This document shows, in pieces, positions 41,399-64,000 of a DNA stretch of 64,000 nucleotides. The translations under genes were made by a program, and so were the position numbers. The number at the start of each line of letters is the position of its first letter. The first letter of the stretch is position 1. The notes below the pieces were generated by a model. That model searched no databases. It was given only the letters and a program-made list of their open reading frames with translations, and was not told the origin of the DNA. The DNA is from a bacterium (GTDB lineage Bacteria; UBP15; UBA6099; JAJRTR01). The DNA lies in assembly GCA_024278215.1 (NCBI GenBank), contig JAJRTR010000052.1, positions 1 through 64,000 on the forward strand. The letters are read 5' to 3'.

Positions 41399-42076
41399 TC
41401 ATACCGAAAACGGCCGACCGTATTTCCCGCGCGACGCAATCTTATCGAGCGGTTTGCGCGGTCTCGCCTTCGGCTCATGGTCGGGCACACCGATAGTCAG
41501 CAGTGCGAGCAGATAGACGTCTTCCGGCAGGCCGAGATCGCTTTTCAACTCGGCGTACAAGTCGCTTTTCTTCTTTGCCGTATCGTTGTTGAACGCCCCG
41601 ACAATCGTCATACCGAGCCCCTGGTTGACCGCCTCGATACCCATGAAACCATAGGCTATGCCGAGTTGCTCGAATGTCCGCGCAAGTATCATCGCAGGCC
41701 CGTTCTCGGCAACGCAGAACAGTGGGTCCTCGAGCATCACCTTGTCGATAATCGCTTCGTTGACCTTCATAACGCCCGCCTCGACAAGTTCCATCAGGGC
41801 TTCCTTGTTTTTCGGTTTGTCCCACGCGCTGATGTCGCCGCATACGCCTATAACGACCGGCGCGGCTCCCACGAACTTCTGCCCTTTCGACAGTTTGACC
41901 AGCTTATCCTTTGTTTCACGGTCTTCGATGACCAGAAAATGCCAGGGCTGCACATTTTCCCACGAAGGCGCGCGCCGACCGGCTTCAAGTATTTTCAGTA
42001 TTTTTTCGTCCGGTACTTTTTCGTCCTTGAACTTCCTGATGCTGCGCCATTTCGCAATAGCTTCCGTCGCTTCCAT
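41399..42076 (-). CDS. Nitroreductase family protein
   Basis: WRSIRKF, APSWENVQPWHF, GLGMTIVG, RPRKPL. Confidence 0.92.
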   Translation of the reverse strand: MEATEAIAKWRSIRKFKDEKVPDEKILKILEAGRRAPSWENVQPWHFLVIEDRETKDKLVKLSKGQKFVGAAPVVIGVCGDISAWDKPKNKEALMELVEAGVMKVNEAIIDKVMLEDPLFCVAENGPAMILARTFEQLGIAYGFMGIEAVNQGLGMTIVGAFNNDTAKKKSDLYAELKSDLGLPEDVYLLALLTIGVPDHEPKARPRKPLDKIASRGKYGRPFSV

Positions 42077-42345: not shown

Positions 42346-42771
42346 TCAACCCGCGTTTATCTTGCGGGCGATGCGCGAGAGGGGATGCCCTTTGGCCTTG
42401 ATGTCGAGCCGGTTGAACCAGCCGAATGGAGTTCGCACGGAATCAAAACCCTGCTCTTTAAGGTTCGCATTCACGGAATCCATAATTTCTATCGCTTTCG
42501 CGGGCGCGCCGAGTTTTGCGAAAAGATGCGCGAAGGGATGCACGACGATGTTGCCTACTTTCAGCGCGCGCGCGTGAGAGGCGATTTCATCGGCAGCTTT
42601 CCCGGCGATTATTTCAGGGTTCTTTTCATCTTTACGCTCGACACACGTGTATACGATCAGCGCTTCTTCGACGTATGTCTCGCCGTCGCCGGGGTCCTCG
42701 ACAATGCCGCCGCGACCCTTTTCCGTTATCGTACATTTGAATGAATCCACGTGCCATATAAGCATTCTCAT
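42346..42771 (-). CDS. Stand-alone archaeal-type threonyl-tRNA synthetase editing domain (tRNA-Thr_ED, DTD-like fold)
   Basis: MRMLIWHVD, EEALIVYTCVERKDE, HPFAHL, TPFGW, KGHPLS; AGGAG upstream. Confidence 0.9.
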   Translation of the reverse strand: MRMLIWHVDSFKCTITEKGRGGIVEDPGDGETYVEEALIVYTCVERKDEKNPEIIAGKAADEIASHARALKVGNIVVHPFAHLFAKLGAPAKAIEIMDSVNANLKEQGFDSVRTPFGWFNRLDIKAKGHPLSRIARKINAG

Positions 42772-42780
42772 ATTGTTGCT

Positions 42781-42940
42781 CCTGACCCGGCATAGCCGGT
42801 TTTAAACCACGCACACGGACTTCGCGTGTGAAAAGTTCGGATTCTTATTCTGCTTTACCCGATAAAAATTTCCCGGAGACTACTCCGGAGTTGAGATAAA
42901 CCATGTGTGCCGCGCTCAAACCGCTTTTGTCCGGGCACGA
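42781..42940. repeat. Repeat family F, degenerate
   Basis: CCTGACCCGGCATAGCCGG end and GTGCCGCGCTCAAACCGC...GGGCACGA core; another end at about 43635-43660. Confidence 0.6.
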
Positions 42941-43080: not shown

Positions 43081-43626
43081 TTATGAGGGAAACGGCTTAT
43101 TATCTTTTATATCTTCATATAGCGTGCGATATTTGCCGCGAGTGTTTATTTTCGCCAGAATGCCACCTAATATGCGCCCCGGCCAGTACAGCTTCTTCAT
43201 ATCGATAAGCTCTACGAGATTACCATCCGGATCGCGAGTAAATACAAAATCTGTTCCAAGATTATTCTTAACCGGACAGATAAACTCTATTCCTTCTCTT
43301 TTTAAACGCTCCATAACTTTCGGTAGTTTTTTTACATCAAGTGCAAGGTGAGTTATTCCCGGCCTGTTCCAGACAACCTTCTGATGCTCTCCGCCTAAAG
43401 GCTGAAAATGAAAAAGTTCGACAAAACCGCCATTGCCGGTTCTTAACAGAAATAATGTGACCTTCGTGCCGTCCTCCAGCCCATATATGTCTCTTACCTG
43501 ATCCTCGGGTACATCCAGCGCTTCCAACAGAGGTATTCCTAATATCTCATGATAAAAACACAATGATTTTTGAATATCCGAGCAAGTGATTCCAACCTGA
43601 GCAAGCGATCTTACCATAATAATCAC
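43081..43626 (-). CDS. VOC/glyoxalase family protein
   Basis: QVGITCSDIQKSLCFY, VELF, GITHLALDV, TRDPDGNLVEL. Confidence 0.9.
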   Translation of the reverse strand: MIIMVRSLAQVGITCSDIQKSLCFYHEILGIPLLEALDVPEDQVRDIYGLEDGTKVTLFLLRTGNGGFVELFHFQPLGGEHQKVVWNRPGITHLALDVKKLPKVMERLKREGIEFICPVKNNLGTDFVFTRDPDGNLVELIDMKKLYWPGRILGGILAKINTRGKYRTLYEDIKDNKPFPS

Positions 43627-44101: not shown

Positions 44102-44197
44102 GCTTGTAAGCAACAACTTGTGCGGCAACATGTTGAATACAGCGGCGGAGAAAAAGTGCAGCCGAATGTGTATATGCGCAGATGGGAAGGTCTAATT

Positions 44198-44635
44198 ATG
44201 AGTGCGAAGAAATACGAACACTTGATCGTGAGAGAGCCGAAGGCTGTAAGCGAACTCCCGCATCACGAAAACATGCCGCAGGTTAATTACCCGGTGATAA
44301 TGTCCGGAGCACAGGTGCCTGAGGCGAATGTGTGGGCTACGTTGATGTTCATGGAGAATATCCCGGAATTCATCGCGCAGAACATTACACAGTTCGGGAT
44401 GGCGCACAAACACAAACACGATGCGCCGGAGATATACATTTTCATCGGGGAGCAGGACGCGATAGTGGCGGAAGTTACGCTGGGCGACGAGAAATACGAA
44501 GTCGGCTCGCCGGGCTGCGTGTACATTCCGCCGGGATTGCCACACGGCATTCAACCCATAAGAGCAAAGGCCGGCAAGGCGGCCGGTTTCATTCCCATAG
44601 TGCTCGCCGGTGAGTACAATACCGAGGATGTATAA
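44198..44635 (+). CDS. Cupin domain protein
   Basis: HKHDAPEIYIFIG and VYIPPGLPHG motifs. Confidence 0.85.
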   Translation: MSAKKYEHLIVREPKAVSELPHHENMPQVNYPVIMSGAQVPEANVWATLMFMENIPEFIAQNITQFGMAHKHKHDAPEIYIFIGEQDAIVAEVTLGDEKYEVGSPGCVYIPPGLPHGIQPIRAKAGKAAGFIPIVLAGEYNTEDV

Positions 44636-45091: not shown

Positions 45092-45940
45092 ATGGAAATG
45101 ACGAAAGCGACAACAGCGACATACGAACTAAGGGAAAAAGATTTCAGGGACATCAGTTCTATGGTATACGCTTCCTGCCGGATAAATCTGAAAGAAGGAA
45201 AGGAAAAGCTTGTCACCGCGAGATTGTCAAAGAGAATGCGTTCACTGGGGATTTCCTCATTCAGGGATTATATCGAGCTGGTGAAGGAAAATGATCGCGA
45301 ATACATGAACATGGTGGACAGTTTATCCACGAATCTGACATCTTTTTTCAGGGAATCAAAGCATTTCGATTATCTCCGCACTCAGGTAATCCCGCGTTTT
45401 GTGCAGAATGGAGACGGCAGCTTGAGAATGTGGAGCGCGGGCTGCTCTTCCGGCGAGGAGGCTTATACTCTCGCGATCACCCTCATGGAAAACATTGAGA
45501 ATATTCAGTTCAAGGATTGCAAAATACTTGCGACGGATATTTCCACGAGGATGCTTGATGCGGCCAGAAACGGCGAGTATCCGGCGGACCGTTTCAACAA
45601 TGTGCCGGCGGACATAAAACACAAATATTTCGAGAGAATCCAGCGCGCCGGCAACGATTTTTTCAGGGTCGGACAAAAAGTGAAATGTCTTATCAAGTTT
45701 AATTATCTCAATCTTATGAACCCGTGGCCGATGACGGCGAAATTCGATGTTATCATGTGCCGCAATGTTATGATTTATTTCGATTCGCGGACCCAGCAGG
45801 AACTCGTAAATCGTTTTTCGAGGCAGTTGAAACCGGGGGGCATCCTCATGATCGGCCACTCGGAAAGCCTGCTCAGCATCGACACCGACCTGCAGTTTGT
45901 GGAATCCGCAACCTACAGGAAACCTTACAGGAGTTGTTGA
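45092..45940 (+). CDS. cheR: Chemotaxis protein-glutamate methyltransferase
   Basis: STNLTSFFRESKHF, WSAGCSSGEEAYT, ATDIS, CRNVMIYF, GHSESL. Confidence 0.95.
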   Translation: MEMTKATTATYELREKDFRDISSMVYASCRINLKEGKEKLVTARLSKRMRSLGISSFRDYIELVKENDREYMNMVDSLSTNLTSFFRESKHFDYLRTQVIPRFVQNGDGSLRMWSAGCSSGEEAYTLAITLMENIENIQFKDCKILATDISTRMLDAARNGEYPADRFNNVPADIKHKYFERIQRAGNDFFRVGQKVKCLIKFNYLNLMNPWPMTAKFDVIMCRNVMIYFDSRTQQELVNRFSRQLKPGGILMIGHSESLLSIDTDLQFVESATYRKPYRSC

Positions 45941-46459
45941 ATGAACCACCCGCCGCTCACAAAAACAAATAAAATCGTAGTGGGCATCAGCGATATGAAA
46001 ATTTCCGCGAGGCCGTGCGACATGTTGAAGACCTACGCGCTCGGCACATGTGTCGGCATATCGGCTTACGACCCGGTCAACCGCATAGGCGGTCTTTTGC
46101 ATTTTCAGCTTCCGTATTCAAGAAGTAATCGGAAAAAGGCAAAGTCGAATCCGAATATGTTCGGGGATACGGGCATTGCGGAGTTGTTCAACGCATTGTT
46201 CGAAAAGGGCGCGGCAAAGAAAAATCTCAAGGTTACATTGGCGGGCGGCGCGTGCATCTCAGGCAGCAACAACACGTCAAATCTGGGGAAACGCAATTTA
46301 TTGATAGCGAAGAAAATACTGTGGAAAAACGGAATAGTGATAGACGCGGGTGATGTCGGCGGCTCGAGCTGGAGGAACATGTCGCTGGATATCGGAAGCG
46401 GAAAGTTGACGATTAGAACTGTTGATGGTGAATACGACCTTGTGAAGGCTATCGCTTGA
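45941..46459 (+). CDS. cheD: Chemoreceptor glutamine deamidase
   Basis: TYALGTCVGI, GGLLHFQLP, FGDTGI, AGGA, GKRN, DVGG. Confidence 0.93.
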   Translation: MNHPPLTKTNKIVVGISDMKISARPCDMLKTYALGTCVGISAYDPVNRIGGLLHFQLPYSRSNRKKAKSNPNMFGDTGIAELFNALFEKGAAKKNLKVTLAGGACISGSNNTSNLGKRNLLIAKKILWKNGIVIDAGDVGGSSWRNMSLDIGSGKLTIRTVDGEYDLVKAIA

Positions 46460-46531
46460 ACCGTATATTTCACCAATACGGGTTGAAGAGCCGCTTGCAA
46501 TAGCGGCTCCAGGGGACAACCATTCAAGGAT

Positions 46532-46993
46532 ATGCTTGTCATGAATGATATGATGCTGATAATGGATAAAACCGACGATACAGGATTTAAAAACGATATG
46601 GCGGGATTACCGCAGGATGCGCCCCGGGCGCGGGCGCGTATTTTGTTGGTGGACGATATTGCAGCGATCAGGAAAAGGCTGCGCGAGATACTTGAACCGG
46701 CGGGATATGAGATCGTCGGTGAAGCCGAAGACGGCTACGAAGCTGTAGCTATGGCCGGCGAACTGGTTCCCGATCTCATATTGATGGACATAGTGATGAA
46801 GAGAATGGACGGTCTTGAGGCGACAACGAAGATTTCAAGGTCGGGAGTAAAATCCAAAATAGTGATGTTCACGCAGGAAGCCAGACCTTCTTCCGTCATA
46901 AGGTGCATGAGAACAGGCGCTGTGAATTTCGTGATAAAACCGTCAAACGAAAAACAATTGCTGCGAGTCGTCGAAAACGCCCTGAGACAATAA
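46532..46993 (+). CDS. CheY-like response regulator (start uncertain)
   Basis: LLVDD, VGEAEDG, PDLILMDIVM, FVIKP. Confidence 0.85.
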   Translation: MLVMNDMMLIMDKTDDTGFKNDMAGLPQDAPRARARILLVDDIAAIRKRLREILEPAGYEIVGEAEDGYEAVAMAGELVPDLILMDIVMKRMDGLEATTKISRSGVKSKIVMFTQEARPSSVIRCMRTGAVNFVIKPSNEKQLLRVVENALRQ

Positions 46994-62770: not shown

Positions 62771-64000
62771 ATGAGACTTTTGATGATACATTCAAATCCG
62801 TTTTCATTCGAGATTACGGACAAAACAAAGTTCGCGGAAGAGATAGTGCCGCCGGTTGTGGACAGGGCTGAAGTGGATAATGCGCTCGTGGTTTTTGCCG
62901 CTGTCGAGCAGCATGATGCCGTCGAGCAGGAAAAAGTTTGCGGGAAAGCTTTCGCTGAAATAAAAAAGACATACGAGAACGTGGGTGCGTCGATAATCGC
63001 TCTGTATCCATATTCACATCTTTCCAACCGGCTCGCGCCGCCCGAAGTGTCACTGCGCCTGTTGAAAAATCTGCGTGGCCTTCTGGAAGACATGCCGCTG
63101 GTTCAGTGTCCGTTCGGATGGTATAAAAAATTCAGCCTCAACGGGATCGGGCACCCTGTGAGCGAATCGAGCAGGGTGATAGAGATCGACGGTCGCCCGC
63201 GGGAACAGAAAGTTATGGGCCGTGGCCGCGAACATCCTGTCGCCGCCATGAACCAGCAGTTCCGCGAGGTCTTCCTCGAACTCGGCCTCGACGAAATGAT
63301 CAATCCGGCGATTATCGACGACTTCCACATCTACAAACAGTACGGCCCGGAAGCGCCACTTATCCTCGACAGGGTTTTCTATATCGCGGGCCTCGACCGG
63401 GCTGATATCGGACTTGGCAAAAGCAAACTCGCAATAATAAATAAAATAGTCCCCGGATTCGACAAAGAGGAACAACTGCAAGCCCTTATGCGCGAATATA
63501 AGGAAGCTCTGATCGAGGCCGACGATTTTCTCGAAGAATTTGCCCTCAGGCTGAAAATCAGCGGCGAACAGGCCGGCGAAATCCTCGAAAAAGCATTCCC
63601 CGAATTCAGGGAATTGACGCCTGTTCCCATGACGCGCACACTGCGCTCGCACATGACAAGCAACTGGTTTCCCGTGCTCCAGCGCATGAGAACTCGATCA
63701 ACGCTGCCCGTGAAACTCTTCTCCGTGGGGTCCCGTTTCAGACGCGAGCAGCGCCAGGATGCGCAACATCTCTACGAAAGCACATCCGCGTCAATTGTTG
63801 TCATGGACAACAATGTTACGATGGAAGACGGCAAAAAGCTGTCATACGACATCCTGAAAAAAATGGGGTTCAAGCGCTGCAAATTCGTAAAGAAAAAAGT
63901 CGCCAGCCGCTACTACGATCCGGAAACGGACACAGAGATATTCGTAAATTATAAAGGAGCACAGATCGAGGTCGGTAATCTTGGCTTCTACGCGCCGGAA
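62771..64000 (+). CDS. sepS: O-phosphoseryl-tRNA(Cys) synthetase (SepRS) with an N-terminal archaeal ThrRS-type editing domain; 3' end outside the window
   Basis: Manual translation gives 410 codons with no stop. Residues 1 to ~137: MRLLMIHS, LVVFAAVE, YPYSHLS, PFGWYKKF, GHPVSESSR. Then GREHPV, EMINPAII, YKQYGPEAPLILDRVFYIAGL, FPEF, TLRSHMTSNWF, KLFSVGSRFRREQRQDAQHL, SAS, SRYY. Confidence 0.92.
   Translation, partial: MRLLMIHSNPFSFEITDKTKFAEEIVPPVVDRAEVDNALVVFAAVEQHDAVEQEKVCGKAFAEIKKTYENVGASIIALYPYSHLSNRLAPPEVSLRLLKNLRGLLEDMPLVQCPFGWYKKFSLNGIGHPVSESSRVIEIDGRPREQKVMGRGREHPVAAMNQQFREVFLELGLDEMINPAIIDDFHIYKQYGPEAPLILDRVFYIAGLDRADIGLGKSKLAIINKIVPGFDKEEQLQALMREYKEALIEADDFLEEFALRLKISGEQAGEILEKAFPEFRELTPVPMTRTLRSHMTSNWFPVLQRMRTRSTLPVKLFSVGSRFRREQRQDAQHLYESTSASIVVMDNNVTMEDGKKLSYDILKKMGFKRCKFVKKKVASRYYDPETDTEIFVNYKGAQIEVGNLGFYAPE

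Follow-up and report, generated by a model that had tools for sequence, protein, structure and literature searches.

In archaea, the N-terminal domain (NTD) of threonyl-tRNA synthetase (ThrRS; Pfam PF08915, tRNA-Thr_ED) is a serine-editing domain with several solved structures, among them PDB 1Y2Q, 2HL1 and 3PD5 from P. abyssi, 4RRF from M. jannaschii and 4RR6 from A. pernix. In the accessible text of Ahmad et al. 2015 (PMC4491819), seven residues of the P. abyssi domain (PabNTD) lie at most 6 Å from the scissile bond: P80, F81, A82, H83, Y120, K121 and, contributed by the other monomer, E134. E134 grips the alpha-amino group of the substrate, and the main-chain nitrogen of K121 fixes the beta-hydroxyl of serine. 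According to the same text, Y120A/E134A keeps the discrimination between serine and threonine at a speed lower by about 1.5-fold, the P. abyssi H83A variant has no activity, and K121M and its equivalents severely compromise three NTDs; DTD has a natural Met at this position and is active. Here we examine a gene for a stand-alone protein of this fold, located at 42346..42771 on the minus strand of a 64,000-nucleotide stretch of bacterial DNA (GenBank assembly GCA_024278215.1, contig JAJRTR010000052.1, positions 1 to 64,000; hereafter the window). We found that it belongs to a conserved family of remodelled editing domains and that, on balance, it is probably a trans-acting deacylase working on the tRNA 3' end with an acyl specificity other than serine.

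Proteins of this kind have been catalogued before. Mukai et al. 2017 (mBio, PMC5424206, Text S1) described stand-alone tRNA-Thr-ED homologues, widely distributed among prokaryotes, that lack an anticodon-binding domain, keep the contacts to the aminoacyl-adenosine and have a changed Glu135 (M. jannaschii numbering); the authors inferred that these proteins hydrolyze aminoacyl- or hydroxyacyl-tRNAs. The window protein shares these traits: it is a single domain, the contacts are kept, and the residue at Glu135(Mj) is changed. It is a new member of this already catalogued family, and the preliminary description of the window reported a real feature correctly but tied it wrongly to a SepRS gene nearby. 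In the available part of the 2017 paper the emphasis is on archaeal groups associated with SepCysS, whose proteins are most similar to ThrRS domains, and that part does not mention an ArsR or DsrE context. In full-text searches the term 'tRNA-Thr-ED' turned up only in PMC5424206 and PMC8762117, and a search for work combining DsrE, ArsR and threonyl-tRNA synthetase found none.

The gene is an ATG-started open reading frame (ORF) encoding 141 aa, with a Shine-Dalgarno-like AGGAG read from the sequence 7 nt 5' of the ATG (42779..42783, minus strand). Residues 1-138 match positions 1-137 of the 137 in the PF08915 profile (E=3.2e-36) with a score of 124.9 bits against a cut-off of 30.2, so that the protein contains the full domain and is indeed a free-standing tRNA-Thr_ED protein, as first described. 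In NCBIfam, full-length archaeal ThrRS and Ser-tRNA(Thr) hydrolase are matched only in part and below threshold, because the protein contains the N-terminal domain alone. We modelled the structure with AlphaFold2 using the family alignment (predicted local distance difference test (pLDDT) 95, predicted template modelling score (pTM) 0.90). The top Foldseek matches of the model were the NTDs of M. jannaschii, P. abyssi and A. pernix, with template modelling (TM) scores of 0.87-0.95 and root-mean-square deviations of 1.2-1.9 Å; for the best pair, 4RRF and 1Y2Q, the values were 0.93-0.95 and 1.2-1.4 Å. In other words, the comparison with the P. abyssi domain proposed in the preliminary description agrees on the NTD fold. 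Likeness to DTD (PF02580) is more distant (TM about 0.65); the two have in common a residue other than Lys at the K121 position (Met in DTD, according to the accessible text) and, if the predicted dimer holds, would also share a homodimer with a cross-subunit site. The 141-aa protein has no PF02580 match at E<=1, which sets it outside that family, and a separate canonical DTD is encoded in the same genome (contig C71, 187.7 bits). A role in replacing DTD was rejected for this genome for that reason.

The protein was also predicted to form a homodimer, with a score of 0.89 against 0.00 for the best control. The mark used for a dimer was attained by 20 of 30 proteins whose solved form is a pair of one chain and by 1 of 23 whose solved form is a single chain; because solved NTD dimers exist, the score of 0.89 may reflect likeness to them only. 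Three runs agreed in at least 100% of contacts, with a partner pLDDT of at least 94, and the confident part of the predicted interface comprises residues 2, 4, 16-17, 19-20, 82-85, 119-130, 132-135 and 137. The predicted dimer would form through the same beta-strand region as in the archaeal NTDs. Most of the family-specific residues described below (R20, F84, F119, N120, L122, R133 and A135) lie at this predicted interface, which is where the NTDs have their active site.

Alignment to the P. abyssi editing domain (1Y2Q) places F119, N120 and R133 of the window protein at Y120, K121 and E134, and H82 and H129 at H83 and H130. The remodelled pocket strand and loop, residues 115-133, read PFGWFNRLDIKAKGHPLSR (42373..42429, minus strand, beginning at 42429, letter for letter in the window), and contain group-specific positions. 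Here F119, N120, L122 and R133, which fall within the predicted interface, stand for the Y, K, F and E of synthetase-fused domains, that is, for Y120, K121, F123 and E134 of the archaeal NTD. The exchanges of Lys for Asn and of Glu for Arg that were originally reported are therefore right, with Tyr120 to Phe as a third change, and the peptide quoted from the fused copy is present as well (PFGWYKKFSLNGIGHPVSE, beginning at 63110 on the plus strand, inside the ORF that starts at 62771). Further upstream in the protein, HPFA (residues 78-81, 42529..42540, minus strand) corresponds by alignment, together with H82, to the P80-F81-A82-H83 segment beside the scissile bond, and has H78 in place of the Tyr of fused domains (Pab Tyr79). 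The loop TEKGRG (residues 16-21, 42709..42726, minus strand) is specific to the family and carries an extra residue, Arg20, in the first hairpin loop. Thus, of the seven scissile-bond residues of PabNTD, the first four are kept (P79, F80, A81 and H82), as expected of a serine-editing domain, and the last three have changed in concert: the Y120/K121 amino-acid pocket and the cross-subunit E134 are replaced by F119, N120 and R133.

We searched for free-standing homologues among proteins of 77-247 aa and found 919 at E<=1e-5. Arg occupies the Glu134 site in all 120 of the best of these, and positions 120/121 read F-N in 118 and F-H in the other 2, which indicates that the pocket changes are not chance drift. 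Twenty-five columns are invariant among 37 diverse family members, with R20 and H82 invariant in 37/37. For comparison we assembled 21 ThrRS- or SepRS-fused domains from archaea that hold the family and from relatives of the window's genome. All 21 have K and E at the pocket sites and a gap at R20, and eight positions are fixed differently in the two groups: the inserted R20, H78 (Y in the fused domains), F80 (Y), F119 (Y), N120 (K), L122 (F), R133 (E) and A135 (S). Shared by the family and the 21 fused domains are H7, E25, E45, D48, H82, L83, P90, R113, PFGW at 115-118, KGHP at 127-130 and S132.

The F-N...R proteins are monophyletic in a FastTree phylogeny (support 0.82), on a long stem apart from the ThrRS-fused domains, while the six SepRS-fused domains form a clade of their own (support 0.965). 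A profile search of 1.84 billion cluster representatives returned 1056 at E<=1e-3, of which 29 reached E<=1e-30. The 150 best representatives include 15 with F-x...R/K motifs, all of them short proteins; Y-K...E occurs in 46 long and 51 short ones, although some of the short ones may be fragments. A pattern scan, with one genome per species, confirmed 164 loci, of which 80 were kept; PFGWFNxL was one of the two scan patterns, so motif counts on the 164 or 80 loci are partly circular, while those on the 120 homologues are not. Bacterial titles among the 80 are Chloroflexota/Anaerolineae, Binatia, Bacillota (including the cultured Desulfocucumis palustris), Nitrospinota, Tectomicrobia, Phycisphaerae, Acidobacteria and Actinomycetota, and archaeal titles are Bathyarchaeia, Thermoproteota, Aenigmatarchaeota, Freyarchaeota and Heimdallarchaeota. 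Proteins of the F-N...R form make up a conserved family that is always stand-alone and spans many bacterial phyla and several archaeal ones. In contrast to the archaeal NTD, it is never fused to a synthetase and occurs mostly in bacteria with a bacterial-type ThrRS. Identity within the family across bacterial and archaeal phyla is 55-60%, which means strong selection for its function. One record titled Chloroflexia contains two tandem tRNA-Thr_ED paralogues (L081:5460-6411), with a further copy on another contig (L088). A stand-alone variant with PFGYFLDLDISAPGISRAR replacing KGHP, in a 183-aa frame (G085:C34:66336-66734, locus L117), branches beside the F-N...R family.

These data point to an enzyme that would handle the tRNA end as the NTDs do and a different acyl group. 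The protein is predicted to be a homodimeric single-domain NTD-fold protein in which the adenosine pocket and the scissile-ester residues (P-F-A-H and K-G-H-P) are retained, along with H7, E25, D48 and R113. Because these residues are kept, it would most likely bind a 3'-terminal adenosine bearing an acyl ester and promote its hydrolysis as in the NTDs. The acyl pocket appears to have been rebuilt (Y to F119, K to N120, F to L122, cross-subunit E to R133, Y to H78, and the inserted R20). The residue that holds the alpha-ammonium group in the NTDs would now be a cation, and the guanidinium of R133 together with R20 would make the pocket more cationic. The preferred acyl group is for this reason probably not L-Ser; it would be anionic or without a free alpha-ammonium. 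The preliminary description had proposed a trans-acting deacylase of different specificity, and its case is supported as far as the single-domain editing fold and the conserved non-serine pocket go, with a changed specificity, possibly for an anionic acyl group, a reasonable guess; the link it drew to SepRS is not supported. It had also treated K121 and E134 as the residues that set specificity. Both line the PabNTD pocket, but this argument is weakened by the accessible text of Ahmad et al. (PMC4491819), in which Y120A/E134A still discriminates and only Lys to Met is strongly damaging.

The SepRS link was the proposal that the stand-alone protein is the trans half of a two-part editing system, removing Sep, Asp or Glu from a non-cognate tRNA alongside the SepRS fusion. 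That fusion is a 637-aa ORF at 62771-64000 on the plus strand, running on to 64681 of the contig, with an N-terminal ThrRS editing domain of the K/E type and a TIGR00470 (SepRS) match of 440.7 bits against a cut-off of 380.65. Its start lies exactly 20,000 nt from that of the stand-alone gene, in agreement with the reported 20 kb, and an anionic acyl group would be compatible with Arg in place of Glu. The two genes share a contig but differ in strand, and the genes that separate them are unrelated. SepRS with an N-terminal tRNA-Thr-ED was already published in 2017 and 2022 (accessible parts of PMC5424206 and PMC8762117). Such fused domains have the same fold as the stand-alone protein and differ from it in their separate clade, their phyletic pattern and their pocket: all six that we examined carry the full serine-type Y-K...E motif. 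Within its own genome, the stand-alone protein shares 30% identity with the SepRS domain and 33% with the ThrRS domain, which indicates that it is not a recent copy of either.

Distribution argues against the partnership. We searched genomes that hold the family for SepRS at E<=1e-30, first in 50 genomes and then in 29 more; many of the 79 are incomplete metagenome-assembled genomes, and several are closed chromosomes. SepRS was found in 4 of the 50 and in none of the 29, that is, in 4 of 79. The four are archaeal records, titled Aenigmatarchaeota, Bathyarchaeota, Bathyarchaeia and Freyarchaeota, with no bacterium among them. In one archaeal holder that has SepRS (L037), genes for tRNA-Cys and CysRS lie directly upstream of the family gene, an arrangement that would fit the partnership. 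We also searched 40 relatives of the window's genome, 12 of them from the same order, counting as F-N...R type any protein with more than 200 bits on the family profile. Eight of the 12 same-order relatives have a SepRS match above the cut-off. Six of these carry it in a single frame of 647-695 aa together with the editing domain, and the other two carry it in frames of 530-531 aa with an editing-domain fragment alongside. The fusion is thus a trait of the window's lineage. None of the eight (73-97% complete) was found to have an F-N...R protein. The only hits were in the window's genome and, among the 40 relatives, in G054 (same order, 78% complete), and in G054 no SepRS was found. The N/R variant is widespread without SepRS, the very outcome that the preliminary description had named beforehand as refuting its proposal. 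These counts largely refute the partnership, and we consider it extremely unlikely that the stand-alone protein is the trans half of such a system.

The editing equipment of the holder genomes bears on a second alternative, namely that the protein is an ordinary back-up Ser-tRNA(Thr) trans-editing factor, similar to crenarchaeal ThrRS-ed (NF011500) minus the anticodon-binding domain. Crenarchaeal ThrRS-ed is likewise a free-standing protein of the NTD fold, with an additional anticodon-binding domain, and serves a ThrRS-cat that lacks editing (Korencic et al. 2004, as cited in the available part of PMC5424206). The window protein differs in being a single domain of 141 aa, scores 72.4 bits on the Ser-tRNA(Thr) hydrolase model against a cut-off of 362, and has a different setting. 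Its assembly (4.55 Mb in 207 contigs, 95% complete) contains three PF08915 domains: the stand-alone protein, the SepRS fusion and the N-terminus of the only ThrRS, which is archaeal-type and carries its own Y-K...E editing domain (G000 contig C196:16830-18653, minus strand). A bacterial-type ThrRS was not found in this genome, which is otherwise bacterial-looking (DTD, CheR/CheD and YhdP-like genes). CysRS (411 bits), SepRS and two SepCysS homologues (517 and 339 bits) coexist there, so that direct and indirect routes to Cys-tRNA are both encoded; these genes are recorded on contigs C16, C65 and C121, with the SepCysS homologues on C65 and C121, which are not the contig of the stand-alone gene.

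In 43 of 50 holder genomes we found no second PF08915 copy over the cut-off, and the 7 with a second copy are the 7 archaeal records, in which it is the N-terminus of ThrRS. Dependence on an archaeal-type ThrRS was rejected on this basis. In bacterial holders, 38 ThrRS matches span TIGR00418 from position 1 to about 562-564, and that of G004 spans 1-559; partial or split matches in G029, G033, G042 and G049 may be contig breaks, and G014 and G047 had no ThrRS match at E<=1e-60. With a full-length bacterial-type ThrRS in the bacterial holders, compensation for a ThrRS without editing was rejected, and the stand-alone protein is not a substitute for a missing editing site. The family is independent of SepRS, of archaeal-type ThrRS and, to judge from the window's genome, of DTD. 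Back-up serine editing would be consistent with the unchanged fold and adenosine and scissile-bond residues, and also with the accessible text of Ahmad et al. (PMC4491819), where NTDs discriminate Ser from Thr through main-chain atoms and Y120A/E134A is active. However, the holders already have an editing-competent ThrRS, either a full-length bacterial enzyme or, in the archaea and the window's genome, one with its own K/E domain. The eight positions fixed differently from the 21 fused domains also argue for a different selective constraint. We regard back-up serine editing as quite unlikely.

If the deacylase has another substrate, its neighbours may indicate which. We pooled 161 loci (80 from genomes, 80 from metagenomes and the window, with a few contigs in both sets), which form 121 clusters of editing-domain proteins at 90% identity and 56 at 75%. 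We grouped the genes lying no more than 2.5 kb away by BLAST and used Pfam to name representatives. No partner is universal. The most frequent neighbours are an ArsR-family regulator, present in 30 of the 161 loci, in 18 of which it lies on the same strand and directly upstream, and a DsrE-family protein whose closest relative is E. coli YchN (1JX7, E=7e-25). The latter is also present in 30 loci, and in 22 it is adjacent on the same strand. Less frequent are SHOCT membrane proteins (9 loci), a mixed thioredoxin/OsmC cluster (9), SAM methyltransferases (8) and Pyr_redox_2/FCSD-type sulfide-oxidoreductase-like proteins (7). Rhodanese, CGGC, ThiF, cysteine dioxygenase and AhpC are among the neighbours seen as single cases. 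At least one ArsR, DsrE, thioredoxin, sulfide-oxidoreductase-like or SHOCT gene is present in 48 of the 161 loci, and ArsR or DsrE is adjacent in 7 of the 56 clusters. Titled records with ArsR or DsrE nearby come from Anaerolineae, Bacillota, Bathyarchaeia and Heimdallarchaeota, and in a same-order relative of the window's genome (L019) DsrE is directly downstream. The closest solved relatives of the ArsR neighbour include BigR (3PQJ) and the 6O8K group, which we take to be SqrR-like. We considered whether it is a persulfide sensor of the SqrR/BigR type, and this was not established: in the SqrR-group alignment (u1067, entries 13ct and 6o8l-6o8o), the query Cys residues at 'eiCktl' and 'naCdii' align to non-Cys.

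Translation-linked neighbours are rare. They comprise tRNA-Cys with CysRS (L037), ArgRS (L067 and L179, one lineage), a YbaK-family gene (L070), a PP-loop ATPase (five related Bacillota records), ribosomal protein L17 (L120 and L121) and the tandem paralogue of L081. The first of these, in a record titled Aenigmatarchaeota (L037:4499-6408), consists of tRNA-Cys, CysRS and the F-N...R gene in succession on one strand, with the CysRS ORF ending at the start of the editing-domain gene. Among the first 60 of the 80 genome loci, which were scanned for tRNA genes, this is the only one with a tRNA gene close to the editing domain.

The ArsR-headed thiol and sulfur-stress clusters of other lineages would point to a quality-control role linked to stress. 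Specifically, the F-N...R family might be a thiol/sulfur-stress deacylase that removes an anionic, sulfur-modified aminoacyl group from tRNA(Cys) under sulfide, persulfide or oxidative stress. Candidate groups would be cysteine persulfide or polysulfide, oxidized cysteine, S-sulfocysteine, or selenocysteine mischarged by CysRS, and the cross-subunit Arg133, with Arg20, would hold the anion in place of the Glu that binds the alpha-amine. Compatible with this idea are the operons of the type ArsR - editing domain - DsrE/YchN-like with their thioredoxin, OsmC, AhpC, rhodanese and sulfide-oxidoreductase-like genes, the tRNA-Cys - CysRS - editing domain order in one archaeon (L037), and the YbaK-family editing gene that lies divergently beside the family gene in L070. 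Also compatible is the report (accessible text of PMC5660078) that E. coli CysRS charges tRNA(Cys) with per- and polysulfides of cysteine and that these end up in nascent proteins. As a specific assignment of substrate we consider it unlikely.

A different set of neighbours would suit a substrate other than tRNA, such as an acyl ester or thioester of an adenosine-containing cofactor (for example in coenzyme A (CoA) chemistry), with the family's new cationic residues, R20 and R133, serving the phosphates. CoA-linked genes occur within 2.5 kb on the same strand in 23 of the 161 loci and are of four kinds: a small CoA_binding_2 protein directly downstream (L020, L023, L076 and L148; Chloroflexota-type and Bathyarchaeia records), an ADP-forming acyl-CoA synthetase accompanied by a DRTGG protein (in a group of Bacillota records), AMP-binding ligases (L046, L060, L078, L142 and L151), and CoA-transferase subunits (a group of Binatia-like records). 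This context is, however, limited to 7 of the 56 clusters and absent close to the window's copy, and CoA ligases and transferases are abundant gene families in the holder organisms. The acyl group of an acyl-CoA is also distant from the adenosine, unlike that of an aminoacyl-A76. We judge a cofactor substrate to be improbable, to much the same degree as the sulfur-stress assignment. In ten of the Binatia-like records (L031, L035, L036, L042, L059, L066, L153, L164, L170 and L182), a conserved protein of about 102 aa without a Pfam match lies directly downstream of the editing-domain gene, between it and two CoA-transferase subunit genes.

Several observations weigh against a deacylase with a new acyl specificity, which we nevertheless favor. 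The changed pocket need not mean a changed substrate: in the accessible account of PabNTD the side chains of Y120 and E134 are dispensable, and because NTD side chains are partly dispensable, Ser-tRNA(Thr) activity may be retained. Asn at the Lys site could mean a weak or non-catalytic protein, given that K121M cripples NTDs in the same account. Sulfur and redox context is found in 12 of the 56 clusters and is absent from the window, and an operon-type DsrE homologue was not found in the window's genome. No Rfam family reached its gathering score in 13 loci (128,663 nt), so that no riboswitch or T-box was seen there, and the one match close to the window gene was a miRNA hit below threshold that we put down to chance. 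No tRNA gene is consistently linked to the family, with tRNA genes of mixed types in the flanks of 11 of the 60 scanned genome loci. Finally, we found no biochemical study of a bacterial stand-alone member in the literature, only the catalogue mentions of 2017 and 2022.

The Asn at the Lys site raises a further alternative, a non-catalytic binder of the tRNA 3' end or of adenosine, such as a regulator or chaperone, whose deacylase activity was lost with the pocket Lys. The severe effect of K121M-type changes in three NTDs (accessible text of PMC4491819) is consistent with this, as is the frequent position of the gene behind a transcription regulator (ArsR adjacent in 18 of the 161 loci). Yet DTD, a structural homologue, is active with Met at the Lys site according to the same text, and His82 (Pab H83) and the whole PFAH / KGHP framework are invariant. 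The strictness with which the new pocket residues are kept likewise suggests a defined ligand, and we consider a non-catalytic role very unlikely. A trans-acting deacylase with a non-serine acyl group remains our preferred explanation.

The surroundings of the window's own copy contribute little to the choice. Upstream of the gene, across a 309-nt gap, is a VOC/glyoxalase gene (43081..43626, minus strand), and downstream, across a 269-nt gap, a nitroreductase gene (41399..42076, minus strand). A terminator-like hairpin with a T-run between the VOC/glyoxalase and editing-domain genes (42872..42889, minus strand) suggests a separate transcription unit for the latter; the consensus scan that located it found 5 sites against 2.8 expected in shuffles, which makes it weak evidence. 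A promoter-like site for the nitroreductase lies 3' of the editing-domain gene, as a consensus match only. A look for RNA evidence listed no RNA data set containing the sequence, and one run shared 5% of the sampled words. With these two neighbours, the window lacks the SepCysS-associated setting (SepCysS, tRNA-Cys and sulfur-metabolism genes nearby). Because its genome has no operon-type DsrE that we could find and only distant relatives of the ArsR regulator, on other contigs, the sulfur and redox context bears on the family and not directly on the window's copy. A 171-aa ORF without a Pfam match at E<=1e-5 (44120-44635, plus strand) lies between the VOC gene and a CheR-CheD-response-regulator cluster (45092-46993).

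Trans-acting aminoacyl-tRNA deacylases such as DTD, AlaX, YbaK/ProX, ATD and CtdA have each exposed a specific threat to translation. In the family described here, the RNA-assisted scaffold for hydrolysis that the archaeal ThrRS editing domain possesses is retained, with the pocket fixed to other residues, and the family's recurrent ArsR, DsrE/YchN-like, thioredoxin, OsmC and sulfide-oxidoreductase-like neighbours give a concrete and testable direction for its function. If the sulfur-stress assignment were true, it would be a proofreading activity without a described counterpart. For the study of SepRS, our analysis removes a tempting but wrong partner, and leaves the fused K/E-type domain as the lineage-specific companion of the bacterial SepRS. 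While the story specific to this window collapses, the family is a good target for a first biochemical assay.

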